From NCBI GenBank assembly GCA_030154225.1, contig JASKKI010000005.1, positions 1 to 61,944 on the forward strand: a stretch of DNA of 61,944 nt, written 5' to 3'. The stretch comes from Clostridia bacterium (GTDB lineage: Bacteria; Bacillota; Peptococcia; Peptococcales; BICA1-8). A program made the position numbers and the translations under genes. Below the pieces are notes generated by a model. That model was not told the DNA's origin. It saw only the letters and a list, made by a program, of their open reading frames with translations, and made no database searches. Every line of letters begins with the position of its first letter. Within the stretch, counting starts at the first letter, position 1. Positions 3,515 through 61,718 of the stretch are shown here, piece by piece.

Positions 3515-3718
3515 GATTATCACCACCCCCTCTAATAAATATTCAAGAGCTTTTAATATATGCTTAAGTATTTCTCATTCTTATTACTAACAGGACCTAG
3601 CTGTAAGATGAATTTTATTTAAATACAATATTTACCATTGCAAAAATTTTGTTTCCTATTTATTTTTTTAGAATATCTTATTAAAAAGGGTAATTTAAGA
3701 ATAAAAAGGAGGCATATT

Positions 3719-4027
3719 ATGAAGATCAAGAAACAGACTTGGCCAACTTTGCCCTGGGATACTAATAAAGATACTAAAAAACCAAACTCTTTTGAAAATA
3801 AAGCACAAAAAGAGACTACCCCTACCAATGGAAAACAATCTACTACAGTAAATGTTTCTCAAAAAGAGGATGATGAATTTATTTTGAAAGACACTTCCTC
3901 CCAAAATATAGCCCTTAATAATGAACAAGAATCTTTTTCGGAAAGTATTGCTGAACAGGAAATCATAACCATTGGTGAAGAACAAACTCCTCCTTTACCT
4001 ACTGGTAGAGGAATTCGGATTTTCTAG
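3719..4027 (+). CDS. small hydrophilic protein ending in ...GRGIRIF
   Basis: ATG at 3719 lies 7 nt after AAAGGAGG. The track ORF start at 3638 has no RBS. 102 aa. Confidence 0.6.
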   Translation: MKIKKQTWPTLPWDTNKDTKKPNSFENKAQKETTPTNGKQSTTVNVSQKEDDEFILKDTSSQNIALNNEQESFSESIAEQEIITIGEEQTPPLPTGRGIRIF

Positions 4028-4080
4028 CTTTCTCACCTCGCCAGAGGCTTGGTGCAAGCAAGCTCTCTATTATGTAAAAA

Positions 4081-4105
4081 GTATCCGGTATTATCCGGAT
4101 ACTTT
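4081..4105 (+). terminator. hairpin terminator
   Basis: GTATCCGG-tattat-CCGGATAC followed by TTT. Confidence 0.45.
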
Positions 4106-4273
4106 ACACAAATTTTAAATTTCTAGATAACTATTTTAAAGGAATAAGCTAAAATAATACATTAAAATTTTAAAGTTTACTTCCTTGACCTTTTTTGTCT
4201 CCAATCTCAAAATTTCGGAATATGTTATTAATGAGAGATATAAGTATTTATCACCTTAGAAAGGAGGCAGAAC

Positions 4274-4840
4274 ATGCCAGTTGGAGATAATGTGGTTTTA
4301 AATGGATATACAATAACCCTGGCGAATATTGATAATAGTAACTGCCCAAACTCACAAACCTGGACCTATACAGTTGTAAGAACTGCTACCCTTGAAAATG
4401 CAATAAGATTTTGGAGCCTCGGCCTAGAACATGAACCACCATTTATCATTCTAGATACCGATAACATGACAAACATAGGTATGGCAGATGTAGACTTTTC
4501 AGACCCGGTTTGTTTAGATTCTCTACCACCTACGAGGCCTGTTATTAAATGGGATATTCCACAACCTACCGACCTATTTGTTACCGGAACATTTTCCTTT
4601 ACACTACAAGGATGTTTTGGTGAACAGCAGAGGGATGTTGCCTTAAATGCCGGAGGTACATGTTTCTTCGGGCAAATAACAGGACCTAGCTGTCAACCAC
4701 TAACTACAACTACTACAAATAATGGAACTACAACTACTACAACATCGACAACCACTACAACTACTACAACTACTACAACATCGACAACCACTACCACAAC
4801 TACCACGACAAGACCTGTTAGAGGAGTTGCTATTTTCTAA
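4274..4840 (+). CDS. Thr-rich (putative O-glycosylated) surface protein ending in ...RPVRGVAIF
   Basis: GAAAGGAGG RBS. 188 aa: a globular Cys-containing N-domain, then about 40 residues that are almost all Thr, then a short C-terminal motif. Confidence 0.7.
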   Translation: MPVGDNVVLNGYTITLANIDNSNCPNSQTWTYTVVRTATLENAIRFWSLGLEHEPPFIILDTDNMTNIGMADVDFSDPVCLDSLPPTRPVIKWDIPQPTDLFVTGTFSFTLQGCFGEQQRDVALNAGGTCFFGQITGPSCQPLTTTTTNNGTTTTTTSTTTTTTTTTTTSTTTTTTTTTRPVRGVAIF

Positions 4841-4850
4841 AAAAGCTAAA

Positions 4851-4888
4851 AGAAGTCTAGGTGTCATAACCACCTAGACTTCTTTTTT
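4851..4888 (+). terminator. intrinsic terminator
   Basis: 13-bp stem AGAAGTCTAGGTG/CACCTAGACTTCT followed by TTTTT. Confidence 0.85.
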
Positions 4889-4983
4889 CACATTTGTCAT
4901 AAGTTATTAACTACATTTATAAAAATTAATAAAACAGAACTATTACTATGAACTATTAACTTAAAAATGTTTAAGGAGGATCC

Positions 4984-6504: not shown

Positions 6505-6955
6505 AGTTTTCTATTTCTTGTATGGAATCAAATCTGATCCCAACATTTTGCGATCCCGTAGCATAAGAAAGAAATGGTACAGCTACACCAACGGAATAAT
6601 CATTTTGTAAAATTTTAGCTATGCCATCAAACCAACCTTCTGGAAAAATTAAATCGTTATTCATAACAGTAATGGTATTCCCTCTACTTTCGGCAAGCCC
6701 AACATTTAAGCCTATTGTATAGCCCATATTTTCATTCAACCGGATATTAATAATTTCGATAGGCCCAGGAGTATACATTTTTATTAATTCTTCAATAGCA
6801 ACACTTGTTTCATCTGTGGACCCATTATCGACAATAATTAGTTCAATCCCTTTTGATTTATATGATGCGCCCAAGGATTTAATTAAAGAAGTAATTGCTT
6901 GTTGAGAGAGATGCCAATTATTGTAACACACCATAATAAAACTAAAATAAGGCAT
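6446..6955 (-). CDS. family 2 glycosyltransferase, apparently truncated (169 aa)
   Basis: N-terminus FSFIMVCYNN...IIVDNGSTDET...NNDLIF is a classic GT2 GT-A fold. The protein stops before the usual C-terminal acceptor region. Confidence 0.65.
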   Translation of the reverse strand: MPYFSFIMVCYNNWHLSQQAITSLIKSLGASYKSKGIELIIVDNGSTDETSVAIEELIKMYTPGPIEIINIRLNENMGYTIGLNVGLAESRGNTITVMNNDLIFPEGWFDGIAKILQNDYSVGVAVPFLSYATGSQNVGIRFDSIQEIENFARKFEEIQKFILANKQSK

Positions 6956-7676: not shown

Positions 7677-7710
7677 GCAAAAATTAACCACCCGCAAAGG
7701 GGGTGGTTAA
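7677..7710 (-). terminator. intrinsic terminator after the C11 peptidase gene
   Basis: Stem TTAACCACCC/GGGTGGTTAA with runs on both sides. Confidence 0.8.
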
Positions 7711-7714
7711 TTTT

Positions 7715-8968
7715 TTATCTTAATTTAAAATTAGTATGCTGTTCCCATTTTTTATACTCCAGTAACCTCCGAACAATTTTTTCCAACTGTTCTTGTTCGG
7801 CATTAGGATTCATTATAGATATTAGGGTTACCAGGGCCTGAAATGGTAAAATTGTAGGTTTCAATTGCCTACCTTCTTCTAAAGTTCTACTTTCTTCCCA
7901 AAATAACTTTCCTAACAATTTAGGCCAGTGATTATTGTTAGCAAAGCCTAATTTTAAATAACATACTGCCAGTTTATTACCTGTAGTTTTATGGGCAATA
8001 TCTATTAGATTACTTTTAAAATTTGTAATCCTCTGAGAATAAATGATTAATGATAACAAACTTTTTTTTAAATCTTTTACATATGATAACAAGGGGTCCG
8101 AGCCATCATTAATTTCTAATAATTGGGAAAGATTTATAGTACTTCTCTGTTCAGTTTTTAATAATAATTGTGCTAAGTCATTTGCTGTTCTTTTGATTTT
8201 TTCCAGTTTTTTGTAATTTATGTTAAATGCTACTAGATCCAGGTTTATTCCTTCAATTATATTTTTAACTAAAAGGTTTAGATCAACTAAGTTATGGTTT
8301 TTTTCAACAATACTAATTAATTTATCAAGGGGGAGACCAGCAATAGGTCCATATTCAATATAGGTAAGAACATTTTTTACCGTATGGCTTTTCTCTTTCG
8401 CTAATTCGTATAGTATTTCAACCATATTCATATAACAGGTATCTAAAACTAATAAGTCTATACCTATCCCCTTAGTTTTTTGCACTAAACTTAGTGCTTT
8501 ACACATCTCGGGAATGCCCATTATATAAGGAAGATTTTGACTGTAATCTGTTAATGTTCCTAAATACTCGAAACTATGGCCACCTAATATTAGCATAAAT
8601 TTTTTTGCCGGATAATTTTCCATCCCCCAGGTAATAAATTCATACAGAACTTTAGGATCTGCCATATTCTGAAAACCCAAATCTTTAATTACTGGAGAAG
8701 ACAAATTTTCACGGGAATTACCTGTATTTTTTGTAACATAGTATCTTCTTACACCTGTCCATGTATCACCGGTATCAGTAAGAACATCTGATGGTCTAAG
8801 TATTTTGGCTAAAGTCCTTTCCATTCTACCCAATTGAACTAGAACATTAACACTTTTACTGGAACCTATTTTTTCTGCCGCCAAGACCGATTGATACATC
8901 TCTGGCTCGAATTCATTATTCCCATTGGCATAAATAAGGATAGTCCAACTTTTCTTAACATCTCTCAA
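7715..8968 (-). CDS. clostripain-like cysteine peptidase (family C11)
   Basis: N-terminus WTILIYANGNNEFE. Candidate His (LILGGHSFE) and Cys (LVLDTCYMN) dyad in the usual order. Confidence 0.7.
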   Translation of the reverse strand: MRDVKKSWTILIYANGNNEFEPEMYQSVLAAEKIGSSKSVNVLVQLGRMERTLAKILRPSDVLTDTGDTWTGVRRYYVTKNTGNSRENLSSPVIKDLGFQNMADPKVLYEFITWGMENYPAKKFMLILGGHSFEYLGTLTDYSQNLPYIMGIPEMCKALSLVQKTKGIGIDLLVLDTCYMNMVEILYELAKEKSHTVKNVLTYIEYGPIAGLPLDKLISIVEKNHNLVDLNLLVKNIIEGINLDLVAFNINYKKLEKIKRTANDLAQLLLKTEQRSTINLSQLLEINDGSDPLLSYVKDLKKSLLSLIIYSQRITNFKSNLIDIAHKTTGNKLAVCYLKLGFANNNHWPKLLGKLFWEESRTLEEGRQLKPTILPFQALVTLISIMNPNAEQEQLEKIVRRLLEYKKWEQHTNFKLR

Positions 8969-9266: not shown

Positions 9267-9710
9267 CTATTGAGCAACAATTTTTTTTAGAATTTTTACA
9301 TCTGTTTCTAATTTATCAAGTCTTTCATTGGTTTTAGTTTTAAACTCTAACAAACCTGCTGTTTCCTCAAAAATACTATCCACCTTACGTTGTAGCTCTA
9401 TTATAACAGTTTTTAGTTCTCTTTGTCCTTTTTCTAATTCGGCTTGTCCTTTTTCAAGTTTGGTCAATACATTTTCTAATTCGTCTTGCCGTTTTTCCAA
9501 ATTTGTCAGCCGTTTTTCCAAATTAGTCTGCCCATTTTCCAAATTTGTCAGCCGTTTTTCTAAATTAGCCTGCCCATTTTCCAAATTTGTCAGCCGTTTT
9601 TCTAAATTAGCCTGCCCATTTTCCAAATTAGCCTGCCCTTTTTCTAAGCTTTCAAGTTTATCTAAAATCTGTAGGAGTATTTTTTCACTCAAATCTATTA
9701 CCTCCTCCAT
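9267..9710 (-). CDS. coiled-coil repeat protein (LEKRLTNLENGQAN repeats)
   Basis: GGAGG RBS, 147 aa. The N-terminus resembles the partial gene at 1..148. The central part is built from 14-aa repeats. Confidence 0.7.
   Translation of the reverse strand: MEEVIDLSEKILLQILDKLESLEKGQANLENGQANLEKRLTNLENGQANLEKRLTNLENGQTNLEKRLTNLEKRQDELENVLTKLEKGQAELEKGQRELKTVIIELQRKVDSIFEETAGLLEFKTKTNERLDKLETDVKILKKIVAQ
9497..9645. repeat. 42-bp tandem repeat, 3 near-perfect copies plus a partial copy
   Basis: Units at 9497-9538, 9539-9580 and 9581-9622 (ccaaatttgtcagccgtttttctaaattagcctgcccatttt). The last two are identical. Confidence 0.9.
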
Positions 9711-13905: not shown

Positions 13906-14022
13906 ATGGCTGACACCGTTGACCAATATGGATATGGCTATGGCTTTGGTAATTGGTGGTGGATCTGGATAATTATCATCGCGATAATTATCATCTTCTG
14001 CTTCTCCCGACCCTATTATTAA
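13906..14022 (+). CDS. tiny hydrophobic peptide P6 (38 aa), subfamily B
   Basis: AAAGGGGG RBS. Sequence MADTVDQYGYGYGFGNWWWIWIIIIAIIIIFCFSRPYY. Confidence 0.7.
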   Translation: MADTVDQYGYGYGFGNWWWIWIIIIAIIIIFCFSRPYY

Positions 14023-14177: not shown

Positions 14178-14309
14178 ATGGCTGATAATACTGCTGGTCA
14201 ATATGGTTATGGTTTTGGTTATTACTGGTGGATCTGGATAATTATCATTGCGGTAATTATTTTCTTCTTCTGCTTTAGAGGGTGTGGCTTTGGCCCTTGC
14301 AATGTTTAG
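14178..14309 (+). CDS. tiny hydrophobic peptide P7 (43 aa), subfamily B with Cys/Gly tail
   Basis: AAAGGGG RBS. Sequence MADNTAGQYGYGFGYYWWIWIIIIAVIIFFFCFRGCGFGPCNV. Confidence 0.7.
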   Translation: MADNTAGQYGYGFGYYWWIWIIIIAVIIFFFCFRGCGFGPCNV

Positions 14310-14426: not shown

Positions 14427-14552
14427 ATGGCTGATAAAGTTGCAGGTGTAGATGGATATGGTTTTGGCTTTGGCGGCATTTGGCTAGTTTGGGTAGCTTT
14501 TATTGCCTTGTTAATCTTCCTCTTCTGTGGATTTGGGTTTTTCCCATACTAA
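14427..14552 (+). CDS. tiny hydrophobic peptide P8 (41 aa), A/B hybrid
   Basis: AAAGGAGG RBS. Sequence MADKVAGVDGYGFGFGGIWLVWVAFIALLIFLFCGFGFFPY. Confidence 0.7.
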   Translation: MADKVAGVDGYGFGFGGIWLVWVAFIALLIFLFCGFGFFPY

Positions 14553-14611: not shown

Positions 14612-14685
14612 AAATTAAAAATTATTCTTTTTTCTCTCAACCTTAGCCTTAACCTCAACCTTAAAACCGGCGTAGCCAGTTTTCC

Positions 14686-15193: not shown

Positions 15194-15412
15194 CTACATA
15201 TTTCTCCAGAATTTTAAGTACTTTACAAGAAACTCTATCCCTTTTATCGGACTGGGTATTTTAATACCTATTACTTGTAAAAAACTTAAGATAAATGCTA
15301 ATAATAATAAAATCAAAAAAAATATAAGTTCACGCCAGTATTTTCTTTGAATAAGACCAGGCACTTCAAATAAAGCTATACCGATAAAAGCTATAATTAA
15401 CAAAATTTTCAT
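15194..15412 (-). CDS. small two-TM membrane protein
   Basis: ATG at 15412 after GGAGAAGGAAA. Sequence MKILLIIAFIGIALFEV... Confidence 0.5.
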   Translation of the reverse strand: MKILLIIAFIGIALFEVPGLIQRKYWRELIFFLILLLLAFILSFLQVIGIKIPSPIKGIEFLVKYLKFWRNM

Positions 15413-15470
15413 TTTCCTTCTCCTTTGTACGTATAATCTGATTGAGGCATCCACTATAAGGTCTAGCTTA

Positions 15471-15652
15471 AATGATGCATCAGACTGAGTAGCTTAAAGT
15501 AGATACATTTCTAAAGCTTAACTTTCACCGGATGCATCATGCTGAATAACCCATAAGGAAATGCGTCCTTTAAGTTTACGGTCATCGGATGCAGACCCAC
15601 AATCTTCAGCCAGAAGTAATTGTCAGACGCACAAGCTTGACCCTTAAATATT
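15471..15652. repeat. array of about 6 degenerate 29-32-bp units (GTCWGAC-type core ... CTTnAC ... TAAGTA)
   Basis: Read by eye. The best unit is ttgtcagacgcacaagcttgacccttaaata (core 15622-15628), and weaker units lie upstream of it at about 30-bp steps. Confidence 0.55.
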
Positions 15653-16774
15653 ATCAACGGAATCCTGCTTCCTGTTTCCTTTTTCCTCCTCCTGTTTCGG
15701 TATCCCCCGTATAATTGCAATAATTAGAGAAAGCAGGGGAAATCCAACTTCAAAAGGAAGGCTGTAATAAGGGTAGATTTCAAAGGCAAAAAAGATATTT
15801 TCAATAACACTATCAAACTGCAGGATACTTAAGCTAACCATAAGAACACCAACGGGAAATACCAGGGGTAAATAAGAACGTAAATTTAATAACTGGGCTA
15901 AACCCAAGACCGTTGCATAATAACAAACAGAAATTTTCAAAAAACCCATCGTTAATAGATTAACGGCTACTATAATTTCCAGCCTTGTTAATATTTTTGC
16001 TATTTTTATTAAACGTATAACTTGATAAGAAGGATAAACATGGATGCCTTCAGTAACTCCGAGGACGGCTGTATTACGTAACAAAGATAGTACCAGAAGC
16101 AAACCAGCAACAATTAAAGCCGTTAGGGTAGAAATTTTGGCTTGTTTAACATTATCTAAAAAGGCAATAACCATTAGAAAAACCACTGTTTCCCCAAAGG
16201 GAAAGGTAGCCGCAGAATGACTGGCTTTAATAAACTCCTTTAAGGGAAGGTCAAGGACAGGTAATAAGTTAGTAAACTTCATATCCTGCGCCAGTAAAAT
16301 TATAGTGCCCAGTACAGAAAAAACCGTAAATACTACCAATATTAAACTACACCGGGTTATTACTTCTATCCCGTTGCGTACCGCTGAAGCACAAACTAAG
16401 GTAGTGAGAATAATAAATACCGCTATCGGAGTCTCCGGGTAGATCATACTTGTTAAAAAATCGCCAAAATTTCTTAAAACTAAACTGCCGAGATGGAAAA
16501 AAAACCACAGGTACCCCAGGGAAATGACCTTGCCTAAATAAGGACCAAAGATAATATCATTGTACTGTACTAAGGTTTTGCCAGGAAAGCGCATAGCCAG
16601 GGTTAAATAAATAAGAGTAAAGACCAGGCCTTCACCCAATCCGACAAGAACAGCGAGCCAGGCATCATGTTTGGCAGCCATCCCGGGCGAGAGAATTAAG
16701 CTTGACCCTAATATAAAACCAACTATTAAAAAGGTTAAATGAGAACTGGATATTTTACCACCTTCAAGCTTCAC
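15644..16774 (-). CDS. spore germination protein, GerAB/GerKB (permease-like) family
   Basis: GTG start after GGGAGGGAGG. About 10 TM segments. Adjacent to GerC- and GerA-family genes. Confidence 0.8.
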   Translation of the reverse strand: MKLEGGKISSSHLTFLIVGFILGSSLILSPGMAAKHDAWLAVLVGLGEGLVFTLIYLTLAMRFPGKTLVQYNDIIFGPYLGKVISLGYLWFFFHLGSLVLRNFGDFLTSMIYPETPIAVFIILTTLVCASAVRNGIEVITRCSLILVVFTVFSVLGTIILLAQDMKFTNLLPVLDLPLKEFIKASHSAATFPFGETVVFLMVIAFLDNVKQAKISTLTALIVAGLLLVLSLLRNTAVLGVTEGIHVYPSYQVIRLIKIAKILTRLEIIVAVNLLTMGFLKISVCYYATVLGLAQLLNLRSYLPLVFPVGVLMVSLSILQFDSVIENIFFAFEIYPYYSLPFEVGFPLLSLIIAIIRGIPKQEEEKGNRKQDSVDNI

Positions 16775-16854
16775 AAAGATCCTCCCTCCCTGGCATTTTC
16801 TACTATAGGGTTATTTTTTGGAACAGCACAAAAGTTTATAGGTTTAGCTAACTG

Positions 16855-17082
16855 GTCAGCCTACAGCTTATAAGTTATTTCTTTGGTCAGACAATACTAC
16901 CAGGTTAATTTTGGGGTCTGACAAATAATCTCGCCCTTTAGCTAATGTCTGACTAACTATGTTCATCTAAAAGTAATTGTCAGACGCTCAAGCTTAACCA
17001 TTAACTATTGTCCTTCCAATGAACTTGACCCATAAGCAGTTGTCTGACACAATTGCTTAACCCTAAAGCCATTATGTCCTCA
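16855..17082. repeat. phased array of 7-8 units, period 30-32 bp, core GTCWGAC
   Basis: Cores at 16855 (GTCAGCC), 16886, 16916, 16947, 16979, 17010 (GTCCTTC) and 17042. Confidence 0.75.
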
Positions 17083-18252
17083 TTCCGGCTTAGCCGGCTT
17101 AGTGATCATACCAGACCGTCGTAATTTTGCTTTGACAATTACCGTCACTTCCAGGCTTGGAAAAAAATCATCCCATTGGCTTTCTATATATTTCCATAAT
17201 TTGGGATATTTCCTGTGGACAGCATCACCAAAACCAAAAATATCTGTGTTCCATTCCTGGGCCTTTTTTAATGCAGCCATTACTTCCTTACGGATAACAA
17301 CAGCTTTCCGTCTTTCTATAGACATCCAGACTTCAGGTTTTGATAAATCTACTGAACACATTTCTTCACCCAAATTTCCTTCTTCATTGATTTCCACCTT
17401 AATATGTAAGGTATCATCCTTTATTTCGGGGGTAATTTTACTGTTGGCCCGGATAATTTCCAGACTGGCTTTACCCTTACCATTGGGACAATCTACAACA
17501 ATAATACCGCTTTTCACTTCACCAATAACCCATTGTAGGCCCCGGGTTTCTTCCCTGCCCAAAAAACCAGCCAGTTTATCCTTTTTAAAAACTGCCGTTC
17601 CCATAAGTAGAGCTGTTTTTTCTTTACCTACTACTTCAATAAGAGAGGCTATAGGTGCAGTGGTTTTGCTCATCAAACGGTTCATAAACTCCTGTAGATT
17701 AACTGCACTTGATTCCGAGGTAGCATCCCGGACTTCAATTAACTGGGAAATACTTATTGCCGGTATTTGTTCTAATTCTGTTTTAGACTCTAAAATTTCA
17801 CTTGCTTTACCTTTACTAACCAGAACATAAATCAGGCGGCGCAGTTCGTGGTCGCGGATAATAAAATCCATATATTTTTGTATCCCTTCTTTAGCAATAT
17901 CCTCGCTAAAGATGACTATTTCATTATGGGGTAAAAAAAGCCTCCGGTTAGACTTATGGGTAAGAGCTCTTATTGTCTCAAAAACAGTATTCCCTGTCTC
18001 TGTCAGATTCCAGTAAGGTCTTTCAGCTCTTCCACCGTCTCCGGCTCCACCTGCAGCGGCGATGGATAAATTCCCCGGTTTAAGAATTTGGGCTGTTAGT
18101 TGTATTTTCTCGGATTCCTCCGCTTTGTCAATGGCAAGACCGGATACAATAGCTAGATTATCCAGCTCCCTACGGTTCCAGCAACCAGCAATGCTCAGTA
18201 GTACCATTAAAAGAATTAATAGTTTTATAAAAAAGCGACCGACTTTCATCAT
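17080..18252 (-). CDS. spore germination lipoprotein, Ger(x)C family
   Basis: Lipobox LSIAGC followed by WNRRELDNLAIVSGLAIDK. ATG at 18252 after GAGGGG. Confidence 0.85.
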   Translation of the reverse strand: MMKVGRFFIKLLILLMVLLSIAGCWNRRELDNLAIVSGLAIDKAEESEKIQLTAQILKPGNLSIAAAGGAGDGGRAERPYWNLTETGNTVFETIRALTHKSNRRLFLPHNEIVIFSEDIAKEGIQKYMDFIIRDHELRRLIYVLVSKGKASEILESKTELEQIPAISISQLIEVRDATSESSAVNLQEFMNRLMSKTTAPIASLIEVVGKEKTALLMGTAVFKKDKLAGFLGREETRGLQWVIGEVKSGIIVVDCPNGKGKASLEIIRANSKITPEIKDDTLHIKVEINEEGNLGEEMCSVDLSKPEVWMSIERRKAVVIRKEVMAALKKAQEWNTDIFGFGDAVHRKYPKLWKYIESQWDDFFPSLEVTVIVKAKLRRSGMITKPAKPE

Positions 18253-18287
18253 TTTCACCCCTCTTATAACTTATGGGTTAATTTTTT

Positions 18288-18380
18288 GTCAGACCCTCAA
18301 GCTTTAACCTTTAAGTATGTCAGACCAGCGATGTTCACACTTAAGTACGTCTGACCAATAAACTTTCACCCTCAAGTATC
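18288..18380. repeat. phased array of 3 units, period 30-31 bp, core GTCWGAC
   Basis: Cores at 18288, 18319 and 18349, each preceded by TTAAGTA. Confidence 0.7.
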
Positions 18381-20078
18381 TTTATTGCCGATTTTCCGCG
18401 GTCGTTTAAGCCCCTGCACCCCCGTCTGTGATTTCATATTACTGTTATTTTCCGGTTCACCTTGTGGCTGTTCCACTTTTTCACTATCCTGCGGTGGCGC
18501 TGGTATTTGTCTAAATTCCTGCCGCTGGGGATCATGCCAGCCGATAGTCCTGGGGCGGGTAAACATAGCCCAAATAGGTAATCTAATAAATACGTCTTTT
18601 AGATCCCTAAAACTTAAGGGAGCCAAAGGTGAAAAATAGGGAGTTCCAAAAGACCTTAAAGTACATAAATGAATTAATCCTGCCAGTAAAATAATTATAA
18701 TGCCAAAAGCCCCCAAAGCTCCGGCAGAAATAGTTATAATAACACGTCCAAGGGCCGCAGTATCAGACTGGGCCGGAACCACAAAAGAAGAAATAGCGGT
18801 AAGAGCTACTACAATAACCACAGGAGCACCAATAAGTCCCGCGGATACGGCTGCCTCACCGATTACCAGTGCTCCTACAATACTTATAGCTGAACCAACA
18901 GGGCGGGGCAGCCGGATTCCAGCTTCCCGAAGAATTTCATATACAATTCCCATGACAATAGCTTCAACTACCGCCGGAAAGGGGGTCCCTTCCCTGGCTG
19001 CAGCCATGGTGATTAGTAAGGGAGTGGGAATAAATTCCTGATGAAAAGTTGTTAAAGCAACATAAACTCCCGGAGCCAGAATGGTTATAAAAAAGGATAT
19101 AAATCTAAGGGTTCGAAGAATACTGGTATAAAAAGGTCGGGAATAATAGTCTTCAGATGTTTGAAAACTCTCTATAAAAACCATTGGGACCGTAAGTACC
19201 ATAGGAGTACCGTCAACCAGGATGGCTACCCGCCCTTCTAAAAGTTTTCCAGCAATAACATCGGGTTTTTCACTGTTAGCAATGGTAGCAAAGGGAGAAA
19301 AAGGAGCATCTTCAATAAACTGCTCAATATAACCCGATTCCAGGATGGCATCGGTATTAATTTTTTTTAGACGGTACTTGACCTCCTCTACAAGCTTGGG
19401 ATTGACTACTCCTTTTAAATAAGCGATACAAATATCGGTTTTGGTCCTTTGACCTAATTGCATATTTTCCAGGATAAAATCTGGATTGCGAATTTTACGA
19501 CGTAACAGACTGGTATTGGAACGTAAAGTTTCGGTAAAACCTTCCCGGGGCCCCCGTACTACAGCTTCTGTTTTAGGTTCTTGAATACCCCGGGATTCCC
19601 AACCCCGGGAACTGATAACCAGGGCCTGATCGGAACCATTTATTAATAAAACTGTATCTCCAGATAAACAACCATCAATTACATCATCAAGGGAAGTAAC
19701 TATTTTTACATCTCCTACCGAGAGCATGGATTTTTGGATAATATCAATATTATTAGTAGTAAGTAATTCTCTGGAATCAAATAAGTGGGTATCATACATT
19801 AAAGGCTTGATTATGCTTTCATTAATAGTCATTCTATCTGTTAATCCATCTACAAAGATAATAGAGGCATTAATTTTCTCATCATAACCAAAGCTGAATT
19901 CACGGATAACAATATCATTACTTGTACCTAAAATACTTTTTAAAACTTTCAGGTTCTCCTTAAGATCACGGGAAAGGCTAGTTTGAGAAGATTTTTGCCA
20001 GTTGCCATTCTGTTTACCAGAATTTCGTTGATTGAGTAGCTGCCAAAATTGCAATTTCTTAAATAGAAAACCAAACAT
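18372..20078 (-). CDS. spore germination protein, GerA/GerKA family
   Basis: Conserved VDGTPMVLTVPMVFIESFQTSEDYY and C-terminal TM segments. 568 aa. Confidence 0.85.
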   Translation of the reverse strand: MFGFLFKKLQFWQLLNQRNSGKQNGNWQKSSQTSLSRDLKENLKVLKSILGTSNDIVIREFSFGYDEKINASIIFVDGLTDRMTINESIIKPLMYDTHLFDSRELLTTNNIDIIQKSMLSVGDVKIVTSLDDVIDGCLSGDTVLLINGSDQALVISSRGWESRGIQEPKTEAVVRGPREGFTETLRSNTSLLRRKIRNPDFILENMQLGQRTKTDICIAYLKGVVNPKLVEEVKYRLKKINTDAILESGYIEQFIEDAPFSPFATIANSEKPDVIAGKLLEGRVAILVDGTPMVLTVPMVFIESFQTSEDYYSRPFYTSILRTLRFISFFITILAPGVYVALTTFHQEFIPTPLLITMAAAREGTPFPAVVEAIVMGIVYEILREAGIRLPRPVGSAISIVGALVIGEAAVSAGLIGAPVVIVVALTAISSFVVPAQSDTAALGRVIITISAGALGAFGIIIILLAGLIHLCTLRSFGTPYFSPLAPLSFRDLKDVFIRLPIWAMFTRPRTIGWHDPQRQEFRQIPAPPQDSEKVEQPQGEPENNSNMKSQTGVQGLKRPRKIGNKDT

Positions 20079-20144
20079 AACCTTTCCCCTTTTCCAGCAA
20101 TTCTACCTTTTAGATAGTTTTGCTAAAAATAGATGGAAATATGC

Positions 20145-20176
20145 TTTAAAAGCCGAGCAATTGCTCGGCTTTTAAA
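20145..20176. terminator. bidirectional terminator (perfect palindrome)
   Basis: TTTAAAAGCCGAGCAATTGCTCGGCTTTTAAA. Confidence 0.8.
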
Positions 20177-20231
20177 GTTCATTTTATTAAACTAAAATTT
20201 CACTTCATTCGACTCACTCAACCTCAAATAG

Positions 20232-20633
20232 CTACTCTTTCACTAACTTAATTGCTTCTTTAATTAACTCATTTAACGGTCTATTTTCGAAACCTACCAA
20301 TTCTACATGGGGCTGATGTACAGGTAAAAGAATTTTCCGGCAACTAAGTGAGGCAATAATTTCAGCCAGACTGGGAGTTATTTCTCCCATTAAAGCATTG
20401 GGGACTATGATACCTAATGGTCCCATCACTATATCTACATCTCTAGTACTGATCCTTATGGCGTTCTCTCCCGTCGCCCCTTTCTTGGCTCCGGCCTTAA
20501 CCATAGCGGCAGTAGCGATAGCATTTGTTCCTAAAGCCCATATTTCTACGTTGCCTCCAAACTCTTTTACAATCCCCTGAACAATTTGGGCCCCCATACC
20601 TCCACCCATTCCGTCAATTACAGCTATTCTCAT
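20232..20633 (-). CDS. DUF3842-like protein
   Basis: N-terminus MRIAVIDGMGGGMGAQIV, recalled as typical of DUF3842. 133 aa. Confidence 0.55.
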   Translation of the reverse strand: MRIAVIDGMGGGMGAQIVQGIVKEFGGNVEIWALGTNAIATAAMVKAGAKKGATGENAIRISTRDVDIVMGPLGIIVPNALMGEITPSLAEIIASLSCRKILLPVHQPHVELVGFENRPLNELIKEAIKLVKE

Positions 20634-20765
20634 CTTTATCTAGCTCCTTTTGTAAGTTGATACTTCATAGACATTAGTTTCTAGTTAAATTTTAGATGAA
20701 GTTTTGAGGTTAGACAATACTTTAATAGCTCATACCTAAGACCAATAATGTTCGCCCATAAGTTA

Positions 20766-22166
20766 TTAAGTATTATCATTTTCAGAACTCCCGGCAAATT
20801 CTGTTTTGACTAGTTCTTTTTTGTTTTTGATTTTTTTAACCTTATTAGGTTTTTGAACTGGTTTAATAAGGATTCTACCTAAAGAATTGCGTAAAGTTAT
20901 GGTCTCAAAAACAACTTCTCCCCAGGTAGGATAATGAATTTGTTCTTCACTATTTTGATCCTCACCCTGAGTCTCAACAAACTCCTGTTTGATAGCAAAT
21001 ACAGCTAGTCCAGATGCAAGTAGGGTTAAACCGCCTGTAGTACCAAAAGTTAAAAAATTGCTTTTTTCCATTAATATTCCAAATACTGGGGGACCAATGG
21101 CCACTCCAAAAAATCTTACTGCTCCATAAAGGGATGTTATCATCCCCCTTTCTTCCATTGTTACTGAACTGGTTATTATTGTATTTAAACAAGTTAATAC
21201 TAAACCGCCGCCAATCCCGCCAATAACCAAGGCTGTAATAAAAATATAAGTATTATTTATAAAAAAAGGAATAATAAAATTGGATGTTGCCAGTAATATT
21301 AAGCCAGCTACAACTAATATTTTATAATTGCTGTTTTTCCTCTGGGTAACAATACCTGTAATTAATGAAGTTGCTGAAACGGCTAATACCGGTATGGCCA
21401 AAACTAAGCCTTTTGTTACACCTTCCAAGCCATAACGTTTTTCCAGATAATCCGATAAATAAAATAAGGTACCAAAAAGAGCAAATAACGACACCGAACC
21501 TGCTACAAAAGCACTTAATAAATGAACACCTTTTTCTCCAGAGATTTTTTTTAAAGCCTGTAAATATTCTTTAACCCTTTGACCTTTTTTATTGGTAGTA
21601 GGATCTTTTACTAAAAACCAGACTGCTAGAGCAATTGGAATACAAAGTACCGGAAAAACAAAAAACGTTGCATACCAGGCTATAAGTCCAACCAGGGAGC
21701 CTAATATAGGACTAACAACCTTGCCCAGACCATTTGAAGCCTCCAAAAGGCCTAATGCCTTACTCCTTTCACCTGTTACAAATATATCACTGGATAAAGC
21801 CATAGCGATAGGCGCCGTTCCGGCAGCTCCAATTCCCTGTAGTATTCTCCCTGCCATTATTACCAAATAGGAATTATTTAAAAACAGAATTCCTAATAAA
21901 GTTACAACCCCACCTAAACCATAAAGAATTAGTGAGGGAACAATTATCAGTTTCCTACTTATTCTATCTGATAAAAATCCGGCAAAAGGAATTACTAAAC
22001 CCGCTGGTACGGAAAATAAGGTTATAACCAGGCTTACCTTAAACTGTGATATATTTAATGCTGATTTCATTTGGGGTAAAACGGGAATCAGCATAGAATT
22101 ACCTAAAACCATAATTAACGGCACTCCAGCTAAGGCCGCTAAAGTAATTTTACTTTTTGTTTTCAA
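20766..22166 (-). CDS. MFS transporter with hydrophilic C-terminal tail
   Basis: 12 predicted TM segments and an MFS-like loop DRISRK. TTG start after GAGGAG. Confidence 0.75.
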   Translation of the reverse strand: MKTKSKITLAALAGVPLIMVLGNSMLIPVLPQMKSALNISQFKVSLVITLFSVPAGLVIPFAGFLSDRISRKLIIVPSLILYGLGGVVTLLGILFLNNSYLVIMAGRILQGIGAAGTAPIAMALSSDIFVTGERSKALGLLEASNGLGKVVSPILGSLVGLIAWYATFFVFPVLCIPIALAVWFLVKDPTTNKKGQRVKEYLQALKKISGEKGVHLLSAFVAGSVSLFALFGTLFYLSDYLEKRYGLEGVTKGLVLAIPVLAVSATSLITGIVTQRKNSNYKILVVAGLILLATSNFIIPFFINNTYIFITALVIGGIGGGLVLTCLNTIITSSVTMEERGMITSLYGAVRFFGVAIGPPVFGILMEKSNFLTFGTTGGLTLLASGLAVFAIKQEFVETQGEDQNSEEQIHYPTWGEVVFETITLRNSLGRILIKPVQKPNKVKKIKNKKELVKTEFAGSSENDNT

Positions 22167-24682: not shown

Positions 24683-25639
24683 TCACCTTATCTGATCATT
24701 CCATTGGGTAAAAATCTTTTTTTGTTTATTATTAAAAGTGCTTATAACACCAATAATACCTAACATATATAAAACTAGAGCACCTGTATAGTAAAAATAT
24801 TTTATATGCGAATTAATTATTATGCTTAAAATTAATAAAACTGAACCATACAGAAAATAAGGTAAAATTCTAGGTTTATCAAAAAGTTTTTCCCTAGCCT
24901 CCTGCCAAAGGCGTTCATTATGCTCAATTTTTCTGAGAATTAAATTATTTACCTCGTCCTCTTTAAGAAATTTACCAGCATCTTTCACCATTTGTACAAA
25001 GAATTTCTTATCTAATAATTTAATTTCTCTTTTATCTTTAATTAAATTACAAAATTCTTTCGTTTCATTTCTAAAATCAGTGGTAGAAATAATAATTCCC
25101 TTTTTGTATTTTCTTCTACTCATTGCCCTTGATAATTCACGGGCTGATCTGGCTTCTACAGCATTATCATCATCTAATAGATGACATTGGACTGCTATTA
25201 ATTCTTCTTTATATTTACAAATTATATTAATTCCTTCACTTTCCAAATGATCGGTTATTTCAATTTCTGAAAAACCAGGTAAATTAGATAAAATTTCTTT
25301 AACAAAGAATACAAAACTATCTTTTTCCATACTTTTTATCCTTTTCCAAAACTCTTCTGTAGCTAACTTTTCATTAACCTGTTCAATTGTCAATTGTAAC
25401 CTTTTTTGTTCGATTAATTTAACTATTATATGATAGATAATCAAAACTGAAAAACTGCTAGCAAAAGAAGCCAAAAAACGACCTTCACTAAAATAGAAAA
25501 AAACTAAAAATGAAATTAATAAAATTAATACCCGATATATAAAATATTTTAAAATTCGTGAATGATAAGACTGATGACAATATAAATGGTTTAAATAATA
25601 AAGTGTAATACGCTTTTGTTTAATTCGAGATTTTTTCAT
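24683..25639 (-). CDS. membrane-embedded Mrr-like (PD-(D/E)xK restriction endonuclease fold) protein
   Basis: Two N-terminal and two C-terminal TM helices flank ...SEGINIICKYKEELIAVQCH...ARELSRAM...KKGIIISTTDF, which has the Mrr_cat layout. Confidence 0.6.
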   Translation of the reverse strand: MKKSRIKQKRITLYYLNHLYCHQSYHSRILKYFIYRVLILLISFLVFFYFSEGRFLASFASSFSVLIIYHIIVKLIEQKRLQLTIEQVNEKLATEEFWKRIKSMEKDSFVFFVKEILSNLPGFSEIEITDHLESEGINIICKYKEELIAVQCHLLDDDNAVEARSARELSRAMSRRKYKKGIIISTTDFRNETKEFCNLIKDKREIKLLDKKFFVQMVKDAGKFLKEDEVNNLILRKIEHNERLWQEAREKLFDKPRILPYFLYGSVLLILSIIINSHIKYFYYTGALVLYMLGIIGVISTFNNKQKKIFTQWNDQIR

Positions 25640-53016: not shown

Positions 53017-53275
53017 TTAGGAAATTAAAAATATTATGTATACATTCAATAGTTAAGAAAAATCTACTTCGTCTATCTTTCAGTACCTACAGTAGCTACA
53101 GTACTACCGTGCTACAGGAAATAAAAGATTAAGATAATAGCTAGCCACTATCAACTAACAACTTAGCCCAAAATTTATACTTTCTTTAAAACTAATAAGT
53201 TCCGGTTAGTGCCATGAGATACGTAGTACCGGTGAGTAAAAGTAAAAGTTATCCATAATTACGAATTTATTTTTC

Positions 53276-57983: not shown

Positions 57984-58014
57984 GCTATTTCTCCTTTCAA
58001 GTAAATTTCTCGGG

Positions 58015-59115
58015 TCAGCATCTCATGTATGCAATTCTGCAAGATACATCCAGCCTATGAAGAAATTCTTCAAACAAATACGCCGAGTCCTGGGGGCCTG
58101 GGGCTGCTTCTGGATGGTATTGAACACTGGAAATGGGTAAACTTTTATGACGTAATCCTTCAACTGTATTATCATTGAGATTGATATGGGTAACTTCAAC
58201 GTCCTTGCTCAAACTTTCCGGGTCTACAGCAAACCCGTGGTTTTGAGAAGTAATATAGACCCTTCCTGTTTTTATGTCTTTGACCGGATGATTACCACCC
58301 CGATGACCAAATTTTAATTTATAGGTTTTACCACCCAGGGCTAAACCTAAAAGCTGGTGGCCCATACATATTCCGAAAATGGGTATTTCATGTTGGATTA
58401 GTTCTTTTATAGTTTCCACCGCATAAGGAACATCTTGAGGATCACCAGGTCCATTGGATAAAAGAATTCCGTCAGGTTTATAACCCAGTATTTCAACGGC
58501 ACTAGCCTGAGCCGGTACTACAATAACAGTACAACCATGCTGCTGTAACTTCCTTAAAGAATTGTTTTTTACACCGAAGTCCATAACTACCACTCTGGTA
58601 GGTCCACCGGGTAGGGTATAGGTAAAAGGGGTACTTACTTCTTTTATTAACTGCTGTCCTGATAAAGGAGGAACTGTTTTTACCATCTCCTTTAGTTCCT
58701 CTAAATCAGTACCGTCATTGGCAATAATTCCACCCATTGTACCATGGTAACGGAGATGTTTGGTTACAGCTCTGGTATCTATCCCTTGGATACCCACTAA
58801 TTTATGCTCTTTTAGGAATTCCTGGAGACTTTCACTGGCACGCCAGTTGCTAGGACCTTCGCAACATTCTTTAATAATCAGACCCCGGGCGAAAATATTG
58901 CGACTTTCCCAATCTCCGTTATTAGTCCCATAATTTCCTATTAAGGGATAAGTGAAAGTAATAATTTCTCCGGCATAGGAAGGATCCGTTAAGATTTCCT
59001 GGTAACCTACCATACTGGTATTAAAAACTATCTCTCCCTGGGCTCTCCCTGTCCAACCCAGGCCTTCACCGCAAAAAACTGTACCATCCGTTAATACAAG
59101 GTAAGCTTTAGCCAT
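58015..59115 (-). CDS. carA: carbamoyl-phosphate synthase small subunit
   Basis: ATG at 59115 overlaps the pyrC stop (ATGGCTAA). GATase motif GICMGHQLL. Confidence 0.9.
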
Positions 59116-61383: not shown

Positions 61384-61467
61384 AAGTAAGGTTAGTTACA
61401 GATAGGTATAGTTCTTCTTCCTTCTGTAGTACTGTAGCACTATAACACTGTAGCACTACTATTTTAA

Positions 61468-61634: not shown

Positions 61635-61718
61635 TAAGTAATACTTATTTACAACTAGAGCTAGTTCTACATCTTTTTTGTAACACTGTAGAACTATAGC
61701 ACTACTACTGTTGTTTAA

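Follow-up and report, generated by a model that had tools for sequence, protein, structure and literature searches.

The germinant receptor locus of this Clostridia bacterium raises the question of why an operon that is normally compact has repeat-filled spacers between all of its genes, and whether these repeats control germination. In the window (the whole stretch of 61,944 nucleotides analyzed here), the operon lies on the minus strand. It comprises a gerA-type germinant receptor subunit gene (18372-20078; Pfam GerA, E 2.6e-187), a gerC-type lipoprotein subunit gene (17080-18252; Pfam Spore_GerAC_N and Spore_GerAC), a gerB-type permease subunit gene (15644-16774; Pfam Spore_permease, E 1.4e-55), and a fourth gene (15194-15412) encoding a conserved 72-aa membrane protein, assigned by position and identity to relatives. 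The start codon of gerC (ATG, not GTG) was taken from the gene call on identical Logan contigs. The fourth-gene product had no match in Pfam or NCBIfam; it is 74% identical to its counterpart in one related operon (L250), and a 71-aa gene occupies the equivalent position in four of five related operons (including L125/L126). The spacers measure 119 bp (gerA to gerC, A-C), 305 bp (gerC to gerB, C-B), and 231 bp (gerB to the fourth gene). A scan of these spacers for sigma-70 promoters and terminators gave nothing above shuffled sequences, and since no intrinsic terminator was found in them, they should be co-transcribed with the operon. The initial annotation read the spacers as an array of phased palindromic GTCWGAC cores with the geometry of a regulator-binding region. 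Our analysis indicates that they probably hold a dispersed, lineage-wide family of intergenic repeats resembling REP/BIME or MIRU elements, not a germination-specific control element.

The periodicity on which that reading was built is real. The window contains 11 matches to GTCWGAC, compared with 1.66 ± 1.21 in shuffled sequences (shuffle maximum 5), and nine of the 11 fall in the three ger spacers. Autocorrelation peaked at lag 31-32 (z 4.2-4.8) and higher at 61-63 (z 4.9-6.2), in agreement with the 30-32 bp period first proposed. A repeat search of the window returned six copies spaced 31, 32, and 31 bp apart. Tandem Repeats Finder did not report the ger-spacer arrays, owing to the low similarity of the units beyond the core (only about 50-65%). 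Cores are intact at 15622, 16886, 16916, 16947, 16979, 17042, 18288, 18319, and 18349, and degenerate at 16855 and 17010, where cores had also been placed. Two related units noted near 20708-20770 are true family members (20735-20765, and 20686-20716 on the opposite strand).

Other parts of the first description had to be revised. The units had been taken as head-to-tail throughout, but scoring of the inter-core bodies with a family matrix shows, in each spacer, a run in one orientation followed by a run in the other (on the plus strand, >> then <<<<< in the C-B spacer and > then <<< in the A-C spacer). The palindromic W of the core is largely a by-product, as the family-wide core is an asymmetric 10-mer, TGTCAGACGC. 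Because the period varies among 30, 31, and 32 bp, the cores share one face of the helix only approximately.

The repeating module is oriented and 30-32 bp long. Its R form (TGTCAGACGCaaaAtnTtnaCCcnnaAGtAn; the F form is the reverse complement) opens with the 10-bp core, followed by a semi-variable body with near-invariant positions at A14, T17, C21-C22, A27-G28, and A30. Family-wide, conservation reaches 98% at A14, 96% at C21, and 95-99% in the core, where the W position is A at 88% in a fixed orientation. The core, with G9 at 74% and C10 at 83%, reads GCGTCTGACA on the other strand. Successive units are spaced 30 bp apart in 65 cases, 31 bp in 113, and 32 bp in 119. The boxes of Spo0A, SpoIIID, CtsR, and TnrA and the Tn7 TnsB sites were compared with the core, and none appears to fit.

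Each ger spacer is occupied by a composite of these modules. The gerA-gerC composite (18259..18385), delimited by matrix unit calls, nhmmer, folding, and strain comparison, has plus-strand R-form units at 18287-18317, 18318-18348, and 18348-18378 and an opposite-strand unit at about 18264-18294. Read in the ger (minus) sense it consists of three F units and then one R unit (F3R1); the first F unit carries the gerA TGA stop codon, and the R unit ends at the gerC ribosome-binding site. The gerC-gerB composite (16800..17082) begins at the gerC stop codon and ends at the gerB ribosome-binding site. Its plus-strand R-form units start at 16915, 16946, 16978, 17009 (core degenerate), and 17041, its opposite-strand units lie at 16893-16923, about 16862-16892, and 16832-16862, and an extra degenerate opposite-strand unit at about 16801-16831 was read by eye. 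The composite between gerB and the fourth gene (15455..15651; matrix, repeat search, autocorrelation, nhmmer, and fold) has two clear units, 15589-15619 and 15621-15651, of which the second contains the gerB TAA stop codon; the remainder is decayed, with a sub-period of 57 bp. A minimal composite with one unit per strand, convergent, was found by nhmmer and matrix in the spacer between an MFS transporter gene and a DUF3842 gene (20686..20765). A possible solitary relic on the minus strand (57991..58021), with a TGA stop codon inside its GCTGAC core, lies in the 31-bp carA-carB spacer and is weak (matrix 10.0, nhmmer E 6).

An nhmmer profile of 330 units from other genomes only recovered window units at E 1.8e-6 to 0.05, only in composite-bearing spacers; these hits speak against the possibility that the arrays of other genomes have no sequence relationship to those of the window. 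The best of these was 15621-15650 (E 1.8e-6); the A-C units scored E 0.015 and 0.03, and the C-B units E 1.2e-4 to 0.7. The four composites lie within 5.3 kb in or beside the ger operon, with none in the other 57 kb, a density greater than the roughly one extra array per 37 kb found elsewhere. Units of different ger spacers are 81-95% identical to each other, which suggests that local copying may explain the clustering.

Within the window the unit occurs only at the ger locus, but in other genomes it forms arrays at many loci without ger genes. A scan for three phased cores detected arrays in at least 15 loci of four Bacillota MAGs (at least seven in BRH_c20a, three each in BICA1-8 and Betzabe_MAG005, and two in AS01afH2WH_13), and none of these 15 loci carries ger genes among the matches listed. 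A stricter pattern returned many more arrays in metagenomes, again among the matches listed. The operon's own copies aside, only one of 51 family loci among the matches listed contains ger genes, and it is the likely orthologous locus (L242). In the fetched sequences, 412 of 420 units lie outside long ORFs, which make up 75% of the sequence. The repeat family thus sits almost only in intergenic DNA of the BRH-c20a clade and related Bacillota, and its composites reach from the stop codon of one gene as far as the ribosome-binding site of the following one. The arrays favor no particular gene context (36 of 46 lie between codirectional genes, compared with 82% in the background) and are also found between divergent and between convergent genes.

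The arrays follow a strict polarity. Among the matches listed, 69 arrays were found in 56 fetched loci of the four Bacillota MAGs and metagenomes; 37 have an F run followed by an R run, 32 have a single orientation, and none has the R-then-F order. Arms contain 1 to 13 units, and the distance across the center of a composite ranges from 12 to 161 bp. At variable positions, units of the same arm are 0.50 alike, while the complementarity of mirror F and R units (0.377) shows no excess over that of non-mirror pairs (0.379) or of units taken from different elements (0.412). The two arms therefore evolve independently. From center to edge, unit quality shows a weak gradient (rho -0.12, p 0.05), which the score threshold biases. 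Composite centers in other genomes often contain inverted heads (GCGTCTGACACAAGC...GCTTGTGTCAGACGC). Runs of heptamers (CTGGGCA, CTGGTCA) and hexamers (GGTTAA, AACCTT), which are likewise intergenic, border or break up the 31-bp arrays of related genomes.

Comparison of orthologous loci shows that arrays come and go. If the units belonged to the ger operon they should be conserved with it, but in five related gerA-C-B-D operons, all of them compact, the spacers measure 18-71, 2-14, and -4 to 14 bp and contain no repeat units. In a near-identical strain, with flanks 99.9-100% identical, the A-C spacer holds F3R5 instead of the F3R1 of the window, and its units also stand in a different order. 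The Logan runs SRR23823819, SRR29026316, and SRR29026320 contain two alleles. Divergence between the two strains begins in the A-C array but stops short of the next array, within gerC at about 17351, and the idea that arrays bound an exchanged cassette was rejected on this ground. The carA-carB spacer of BRH_c20a (L074) has an array of four units set in a mosaic of about 240 bp, compared with the 31-bp spacer of the window; the carB DNA of the two genomes is only about 75% identical. At L242, the MFS-DUF3842 spacer has a composite of about 10 units, compared with one unit per strand in the window. Both spacers are rich in units in one genome and almost devoid of them in the other; arrays are gained and lost at orthologous sites. 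The ger spacers at L242 are also enlarged, mostly by other repeat modules, so some property of the ger locus may favor such repeats.

Because an F run followed by an R run makes an inverted composite, the C-B spacer folds as a single long hairpin (sense RNA -93.2 kcal/mol, z -4.8; antisense -75 kcal/mol, z -3.6). The A-C sense RNA is predicted to form a hairpin of -30.2 kcal/mol (z -2.5; antisense -21.9), and the RNA of the spacer between gerB and the fourth gene folds with z -2.4. Predicted hairpins in the ger operon reach about 260 nt and leave the ribosome-binding site unpaired. Pairing of neighboring units in RNA had been offered as an alternative to protein binding. It holds in that the spacers fold into long hairpins, but they do so as inverted composites, and tests of mirror-unit complementarity and of sense against antisense folding show no sign of selection.

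These observations bear on several other readings of the locus. A ger-specific operator, in which a dimeric regulator or nucleoid protein binds phased palindromic cores cooperatively, would account for a period close to three helical turns, for the strong over-representation of the core in the spacers, and for units that within the window occur only at the ger locus. It is nevertheless very unlikely and is not supported by the comparisons, since the same unit type forms arrays at many non-ger loci of other genomes and related ger operons have no units. Copy number also differs between near-identical strains, the family-wide core is asymmetric and has no dyad, and the units lie between cistrons, downstream of the likely gerA promoter region and not at a promoter. 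A broader possibility, which we regard as doubtful, is that the modules are functional sites for an abundant protein that binds DNA genome-wide (nucleoid-associated, of gyrase or IHF type, or a domesticated transposase), with the phasing of about 31 bp serving an array or filament. This overlaps with the dispersed-repeat explanation and adds the claim of a host function. Isolated near-invariant positions in a variable body, kept between genomes with about 75% identical carB, argue for it, as do the tight unit length, the strict arm polarity, and arms that lack hairpin-like co-variation. Against it are the spacing jitter of ±1 bp, the wide range of center distances, the highly variable copy number, and the dispensability of arrays at orthologous sites, and no candidate protein was found.

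If the composites were selected RNA elements, intercistronic hairpins setting the processing, stability, or translation of adjacent cistrons, one would expect what the ger spacers show: folding far better than shuffles, a sense strand more stable than the antisense, composites placed exactly between the stop codon and an unpaired ribosome-binding site, and no intrinsic terminator. We consider this unlikely, because the 36 codirectional arrays show no significant gain in stability of the sense strand over the antisense (p 0.14), single-orientation arrays show no strand preference with respect to transcription (12 R and 8 F), mirror units are no more complementary than random pairs, and arrays also occur between divergent and convergent genes. 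Rfam gave no match to the window at gathering score or to five loci with strong arrays, and a permissive search of 15300-20900 gave chance-level hits only. Mobility as MITE-like miniature non-autonomous transposons is quite unlikely. The ends of Mu, Tn7, and IS21 carry multi-copy transposase-binding sites, and the arms could be such sites; the inverted arms with strict polarity, the TGT with which units begin, and the existence of filled and nearly empty orthologous sites would fit. However, arm copy number ranges widely and changes between near-identical strains, TGT points to the center of the composite instead of its outer ends, about half of the arrays are single-armed, no target-site duplication or autonomous partner was seen, and a strong composite had no BLAST match among plasmids or phages. 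A reading as degenerate CRISPR arrays, or as integron attC sites between gene cassettes, is exceedingly improbable, although the repeats are regular at about 31 bp, form imperfect inverted repeats directly after the stop codons of successive genes, and include cores (GTCAGAC, GTTAGAC) that resemble the integron core GTTRRRY. A CRISPR array was rejected because the units abut, with no unique spacers between them, and no cas domain was present among 38 Pfam-scanned ORFs of the window. Integron cassettes were rejected because the conserved four-gene operon is intact and repeat-free in five relatives, so the ger genes are not cassettes, and no integrase was present among the same 38 ORFs; the same repeats also lie inside the carAB operon of a relative.

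The explanation that we favor is thus a dispersed intergenic repeat family, modules of which would have entered, or multiplied within, each of the three spacers of a gerA-C-B-D operon that is normally compact. A full element is an F run, a variable center, and an R run, which together form a long imperfect inverted repeat. Unequal recombination or replication slippage may lengthen and shorten the arms one at a time, and local spread may have carried copies from one array to its neighbors. The persistence of near-invariant positions in diverged genomes suggests that each module could be the recognition site of a protein that makes, maintains, or binds the repeats genome-wide. In the ger transcript, the composites would fold into long intercistronic hairpins that may uncouple translation of the subunits and could alter transcript processing or stability. 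Any effect on ger expression would then be a side effect of a generic element and not the work of a dedicated ger regulator. A more specific proposal, which we offer tentatively and think unlikely, is that the 31-bp module is the site of a protein specific to the BRH-c20a-type Bacillota lineage, either a mobilizing enzyme (domesticated or single-copy) or a DNA-binding protein that forms arrays, which builds the strictly polar two-armed arrays between cistrons, and that rapid copy-number changes tune the relative expression of cistrons such as those of the germinant receptor subunits. If a module-specific protein does exist, the family would represent a new class of repeat system in bacteria, in which the units are non-palindromic and an F run precedes an R run.

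Some REP/BIME sequences in Escherichia coli operons are intercistronic hairpins that act on adjacent cistrons. The present family resembles REP, BIME, and REPIN sequences in being a high-copy, extragenic short repeat that is often placed between operon cistrons just after stop codons, clusters in mosaics with other short motifs, and persists across related genomes. It differs in that a single 31-bp unit is non-palindromic and does not fold (consensus and window units, folded as DNA, reached 0 to -2.7 kcal/mol, no better than shuffles), whereas REP sequences are imperfect palindromes of 20-40 bp able to form stem-loops, and in that same-orientation tandem runs with one switch at most replace the alternating orientation of BIMEs. 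REP sequences usually flank a cognate single-copy RAYT gene, which encodes a Y1/HUH transposase. A search for the HUH...Y motif found no such gene among 487 ORFs (about 480 kb) of the fetched loci, none was present among the 38 Pfam-scanned window ORFs (30 in the first 42 kb and eight around ger), and the 30 ORFs scanned in the first 42 kb of the window include no recombinase. GTAG- and CGTC-tagged REP super-families have been described in Proteobacteria, and a survey of CGTC REPs found repeats in five phyla, with no mention of Firmicutes (PMC3733652). The family consensus contains CGTC (GCGTCTGAC) as its end tetranucleotide; in the window this end is kept by some units only, e.g., 15621 and 16978.

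MIRU/VNTR loci of Mycobacterium consist of intercistronic tandem units of tens of bp with copy number varying between close strains; MIRU units are 40-100 bp, contain short reading frames coupled to neighboring genes, and run in a single direction. The arrays described here share intercistronic tandem units that abut or overlap stop and start signals, and they share strain copy-number polymorphism (F3R1 and F3R5). They differ in having units of 30-32 bp, not set to a multiple of three, and convergent two-arm composites; the coupled short reading frames and single orientation of MIRUs are lacking, and overlap with the upstream stop codon is limited to the first unit. BOX elements of Streptococcus pneumoniae and NIME/dRS3 elements of Neisseria are modular intergenic mosaics with variable module repeats that may form long hairpins. 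Like them, the present family repeats one module variably between distinct end or center modules, but it has no sequence similarity to them, other module sizes, and a strict F-run-then-R-run rule that they lack. Direct repeats with a conserved short core and spacing by whole helical turns recall iterons and phased operators, which are locus-specific at origins or promoters, whereas the present units are dispersed over many non-ger loci, lie between cistrons, vary in copy number, and do not occur in related ger operons. Cyanobacterial STRRs are short tandem heptamer repeats. Intergenic TAACTGA repeats have been reported in Beggiatoaceae (PMC4679880). Both families resemble the heptamer and hexamer runs around the 31-bp arrays, which are similarly intergenic, and both are simple short direct repeats, in contrast to a 31-bp module with a 10-bp conserved core.

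For spore biology the outcome is mostly negative: because the repeats are generic, it would be a mistake to take the ger spacers for a control region dedicated to the germinant receptor. A tightly coupled four-gene operon is nonetheless split by predicted hairpins, and since the arrays vary between near-identical strains, they could change subunit stoichiometry. A limited literature search on the core sequence, on Peptococcaceae repeats, and on repeats of germinant-receptor operons found nothing relevant, and to that extent the initial statement that no such element has been described in ger operons stands. To our knowledge, dispersed REP-like repeat families have rarely been reported in Firmicutes. 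The rules of this family are unusual: its modules are oriented and non-palindromic, single positions within them are near-invariant, the polarity is strictly convergent, the arms are independent, and hexamer and heptamer modules accompany the arrays. The uncultured host clade was linked in 2026 to the reduction of CO2 to acetate in microbial electrosynthesis (PMC12980525). The repeat family could serve for strain typing and probably causes breaks in the assembly of MAGs from this clade.

The spacers of the germinant-receptor (ger) operon are members of a dispersed intergenic repeat family that has a defined architecture, changes rapidly and has no specific link to ger genes. The operon is on the minus strand and includes gerA-type (18372-20078), gerC-type (17080-18252) and gerB-type (15644-16774) genes, identified by Pfam, and a conserved fourth gene (15194-15412) that is kept across related ger operons and encodes a predicted membrane protein of 72 aa. 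No Pfam or NCBIfam family covers this product, which is 74% identical to its counterpart at locus L250; four of five related operons have a gene of 71 aa at the position after gerB, and it is the fourth gene of this ger operon type. Spacer lengths are 119 bp (gerA-gerC, A-C), 305 bp (gerC-gerB, C-B) and 231 bp (gerB-fourth gene, B-D), and a scan of the ger spacers gave no terminator-like site. A palindrome resembling a bidirectional terminator, with a 16-bp stem and T-runs on both sides, lies between the DUF3842 gene and gerA (20143-20178). Just downstream of this hairpin in the ger sense, and upstream of gerA, GCATA-N17-CAAAACTA is a weak match that loosely resembles forespore-type promoters.

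The 61.9-kb window contains 11 matches to the motif GTCWGAC, compared to 1.66 ± 1.21 (largest 5) in dinucleotide-preserving shuffles, and nine of the 11 matches fall in ger spacers, in agreement with the core positions listed in the initial annotation. Autocorrelation of the spacers, which had been described as phased, peaked at lags of 31-32 (z 4.2-4.8), with a still stronger peak at 61-63 (z 4.9-6.2), and a repeat finder returned six copies in the window spaced 31/32/31 bp. Core excess, autocorrelation and repeat-finder copies therefore uphold the raw observation. Tandem Repeats Finder missed the arrays of the ger spacers because their units are too divergent.

Unit orientation was assigned by scoring inter-core bodies with a position matrix from related arrays; R denotes TGTCAGACGC...ACCC..AGTA, and F is its complement. 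The units had been read as uniformly head-to-tail, but each spacer has two runs of opposite orientation in succession (a composite: F run, centre and R run). Taken in the ger sense, the order is F F F R in A-C, four to five F units ahead of three to four R units in C-B, and F F ahead of decayed units in B-D. This switch escaped notice because the GTCWGAC core is palindromic. GTCWGAC is present in the spacers, but the family-wide core is the asymmetric 10-mer TGTCAGACGC, in which the W position is A in 88% of units after orienting. The stop codon of the upstream gene sits inside the first F unit of the window composites, and their last R unit stops a few bases short of the next ribosome-binding site. 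A profile HMM of 330 units, with the window excluded, matched window units at E-values of 1.8e-6, 1.2e-4, 0.015, 0.03, 0.039 and 0.052. Matches were confined to the three ger spacers and the MFS/DUF3842 spacer, and nothing in the rest of the window scored below E = 1. Four composites are packed into 5.3 kb, with none across the other 57 kb, a clustering at the ger locus that we tentatively attribute to local copying.

The repeats are not a constant part of ger operons. Five related operons (L124/125, L127-129, L250, L251 and L252/253; GerC 62-70% identical) are compact, with spacers of 18-71 bp (A-C), 2-14 bp (C-B) and -4 to 14 bp (B-D), and neither a repeat unit nor a GTCWGAC core was found at these loci. 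L250 comes from the BICA1a assembly, which also yielded the BICA1-8 MAG, although not necessarily from the same bin. Because these five operons are compact, the long spacers of the window represent the derived state, and insertion or expansion of repeats in very short spacers explains the exact fit of the composites between stop codon and ribosome-binding site.

The same unit is also not specific to ger loci. A scan for three phased cores in one genome per species gave mostly chance matches and unrelated repeats, but four Bacillota MAGs also had arrays built from this 31-bp unit: Clostridiaceae bacterium BRH_c20a (at least seven loci), Peptococcaceae bacterium BICA1-8 (at least three), Bacillota bacterium Betzabe_MAG005 (at least three) and Clostridia bacterium AS01afH2WH_13 (at least two). 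Among the matches listed, none of these array loci encodes a GerA, GerB or GerC homologue. With a stricter two-unit pattern, metagenome contigs yielded many further arrays, including at least four loci on one long contig. The collected family comprises at least 69 arrays (three or more units each) at 56 or more loci, with 432 units, 342 of them distinct. The organism of the window is a relative of BRH_c20a: the carB region and BRH_c20a locus L074 are syntenic, with a nucleotide identity of approximately 75% and, for the best carB segment after translation, an identity of 85%. The three-core pattern also matched long, unrelated tandem arrays in one MAG each of Nitrospirales (128 phased cores), Cenarchaeum and Nitrosopumilus, together with a repeat family of a Pseudomonadota MAG (bin05); these high-GC or archaeal matches from the genome-contig scan include L021, L065, L080 and L007/L025/L026/L039, among others.

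Family-wide, same-orientation neighbors are spaced 30 bp (n = 65), 31 bp (n = 113) or 32 bp (n = 119) apart. Outside the core, A14 (98%), T17 (81%), C21 (96%), C22 (83%), A27 (90%), G28 (87%) and A30 (82%) are near-invariant, and other body positions are variable. Thirty-seven of the 69 arrays have an F run followed by an R run, 22 have R only and 10 have F only; no array starts with R and switches to F, and none switches more than once. Long ORFs occupy 75% of the sequence, and 412 of 420 units lie outside them. Flanking genes are codirectional for 36 arrays, divergent for seven and convergent for three, which matches background (82% codirectional pairs). Composite centres are 12-161 bp long and in other genomes often carry conserved heads (GCGTCTGACACAAGCxTTG or TTTTATCAGACGC) and heptamer runs (CTGGGCA or CTGGTCA); many arrays are flanked by hexamer runs (GGTTAA or AACCTT). 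In the window, hexamers (AACCTC/AACCTT) and 8-9-mers (CTGTAGCA, CAGTACCTA) form short intergenic runs at 14636-14664, 53081-53117, 61424-61457 and 61680-61700. They resemble the simple-repeat modules located beside or inside arrays of BRH_c20a, BICA1-8 and metagenomes (GGTTAAGGTTAAGG, CAGTGCTACAGTGCTACAG, CTGGGCACTGGGCAC). BRH_c20a locus L018 has two near-identical mosaics of about 200 bp, 1 kb apart (6601-6810 and 7677-7890), each with a unique leader, a head, three R units and heptamers, and with a small ORF downstream (133 and 106 aa, respectively); so whole mosaics can duplicate together with their flanks.

The operon also occurs, as two alleles, in Logan contigs from other samples. One (L001, L003) is exactly the window sequence. 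The other (L002, L123) matches the window at 99.9-100% identity outside the A-C array and the first part of gerC, including gerA, gerB, the fourth gene and the STAS gene; its A-C spacer is F3R5 compared to F3R1 in the window, with a different order of F units, and its gerC is 4.3% divergent over the first ~900 nt, most densely in the signal-peptide region. This divergence ends within gerC near 17351 and begins in the A-C array (window 17351-18348), a pattern suggestive of a recombination tract that has one of its ends there. Some extra units of this allele are 95% identical to C-B units of the window, and the B-D and C-B spacers of the window share a 62-bp stretch at 81% identity; both fit local copying between neighboring arrays. 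Slippage or unequal recombination may reshape the arrays one arm at a time. Orthologous sites differ in array content: between carA and carB, the window has 31 bp and no more than a single weak relic unit, compared to approximately 240 bp and a four-unit array in BRH_c20a. The composite between the MFS and DUF3842 genes consists of one plus one units in the window and of about ten in metagenome contig L242. The L242 ger operon is likely orthologous to that of the window (GerA 71% identical; DUF3842 and MFS neighbors in common), and its spacers are enlarged too, mostly by hexamer and heptamer modules with a single 31-bp unit. It is inverted relative to the DUF3842 and MFS genes compared with the window, and L242 has two tandem gerB-type permease genes (2703-4915), 55% and 49% identical to window GerB.

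As ger-sense RNA, the C-B spacer folds into one long hairpin of nearly full spacer length (-93.2 kcal/mol, z -4.8), and the A-C and B-D spacers fold more stably than shuffles (z -2.5 and -2.4); single units alone do not fold. Sense and antisense transcripts of 36 codirectional arrays did not differ significantly in stability (p 0.14), and single-run arrays had no preferred strand. Units within one arm resemble each other more closely at variable positions (0.50). Complementarity between F and R units was 0.377 for mirror pairs, 0.379 for non-mirror pairs and 0.412 between different composites. Mirror pairs have no excess complementarity; therefore, the arms grow independently and the hairpin rests on consensus positions only. 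In a polycistronic ger transcript, composites are predicted to fold into long hairpins that would uncouple translation, and such hairpins could alter processing or stability.

The near-invariant positions, kept between genomes with approximately 75% coding-DNA identity, suggest that the unit is recognized by a protein, which could be an enzyme that mobilizes or maintains the repeats or a protein that binds them genome-wide. In how it works, the element comes closest to REP/BIME/REPIN elements and MIRU-type minisatellites, but it departs from each in defining features: unlike REP/REPIN, the units are non-palindromic; unlike BIMEs, orientation does not alternate; and unlike MIRU-type minisatellites, unit length is not a multiple of three. 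The core does contain CGTC, the tag of the CGTC REP super-family, which is reported in five phyla, with Firmicutes unmentioned in the survey (PMC3733652). A motif search in the ORFs of the fetched loci revealed no RAYT gene. No match was found in Rfam (window and five strong-array loci) or in plasmid and phage sequences (one strong composite), and limited literature searches likewise gave no description, in line with the initial annotation. We rate the element as belonging with dispersed intergenic mosaic repeats, as a variant set apart by its rules.

Other features of the window include three tandem paralogous genes on the plus strand (13906-14022, 14178-14309 and 14427-14552) encoding 38-43-aa peptides (MAD..GYGYGFG..WWIWIIII..), whose upstream regions are similar and which each have a ribosome-binding site of their own. 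The peptides have no NCBIfam match; they may resemble the small sporulation peptides of the YjcZ type in Bacillus. At its very start (1-99), the window has 4.7 copies of a perfect 21-bp tandem repeat, and a 21/42-bp repeat (about eight and four copies, 9472-9647) lies within a 147-aa coiled-coil ORF (9267-9710). A gene encoding an Mrr-type restriction endonuclease domain (24683-25639, minus strand) has housekeeping neighbors, dapB and menaquinone methyltransferase/prenyltransferase genes.
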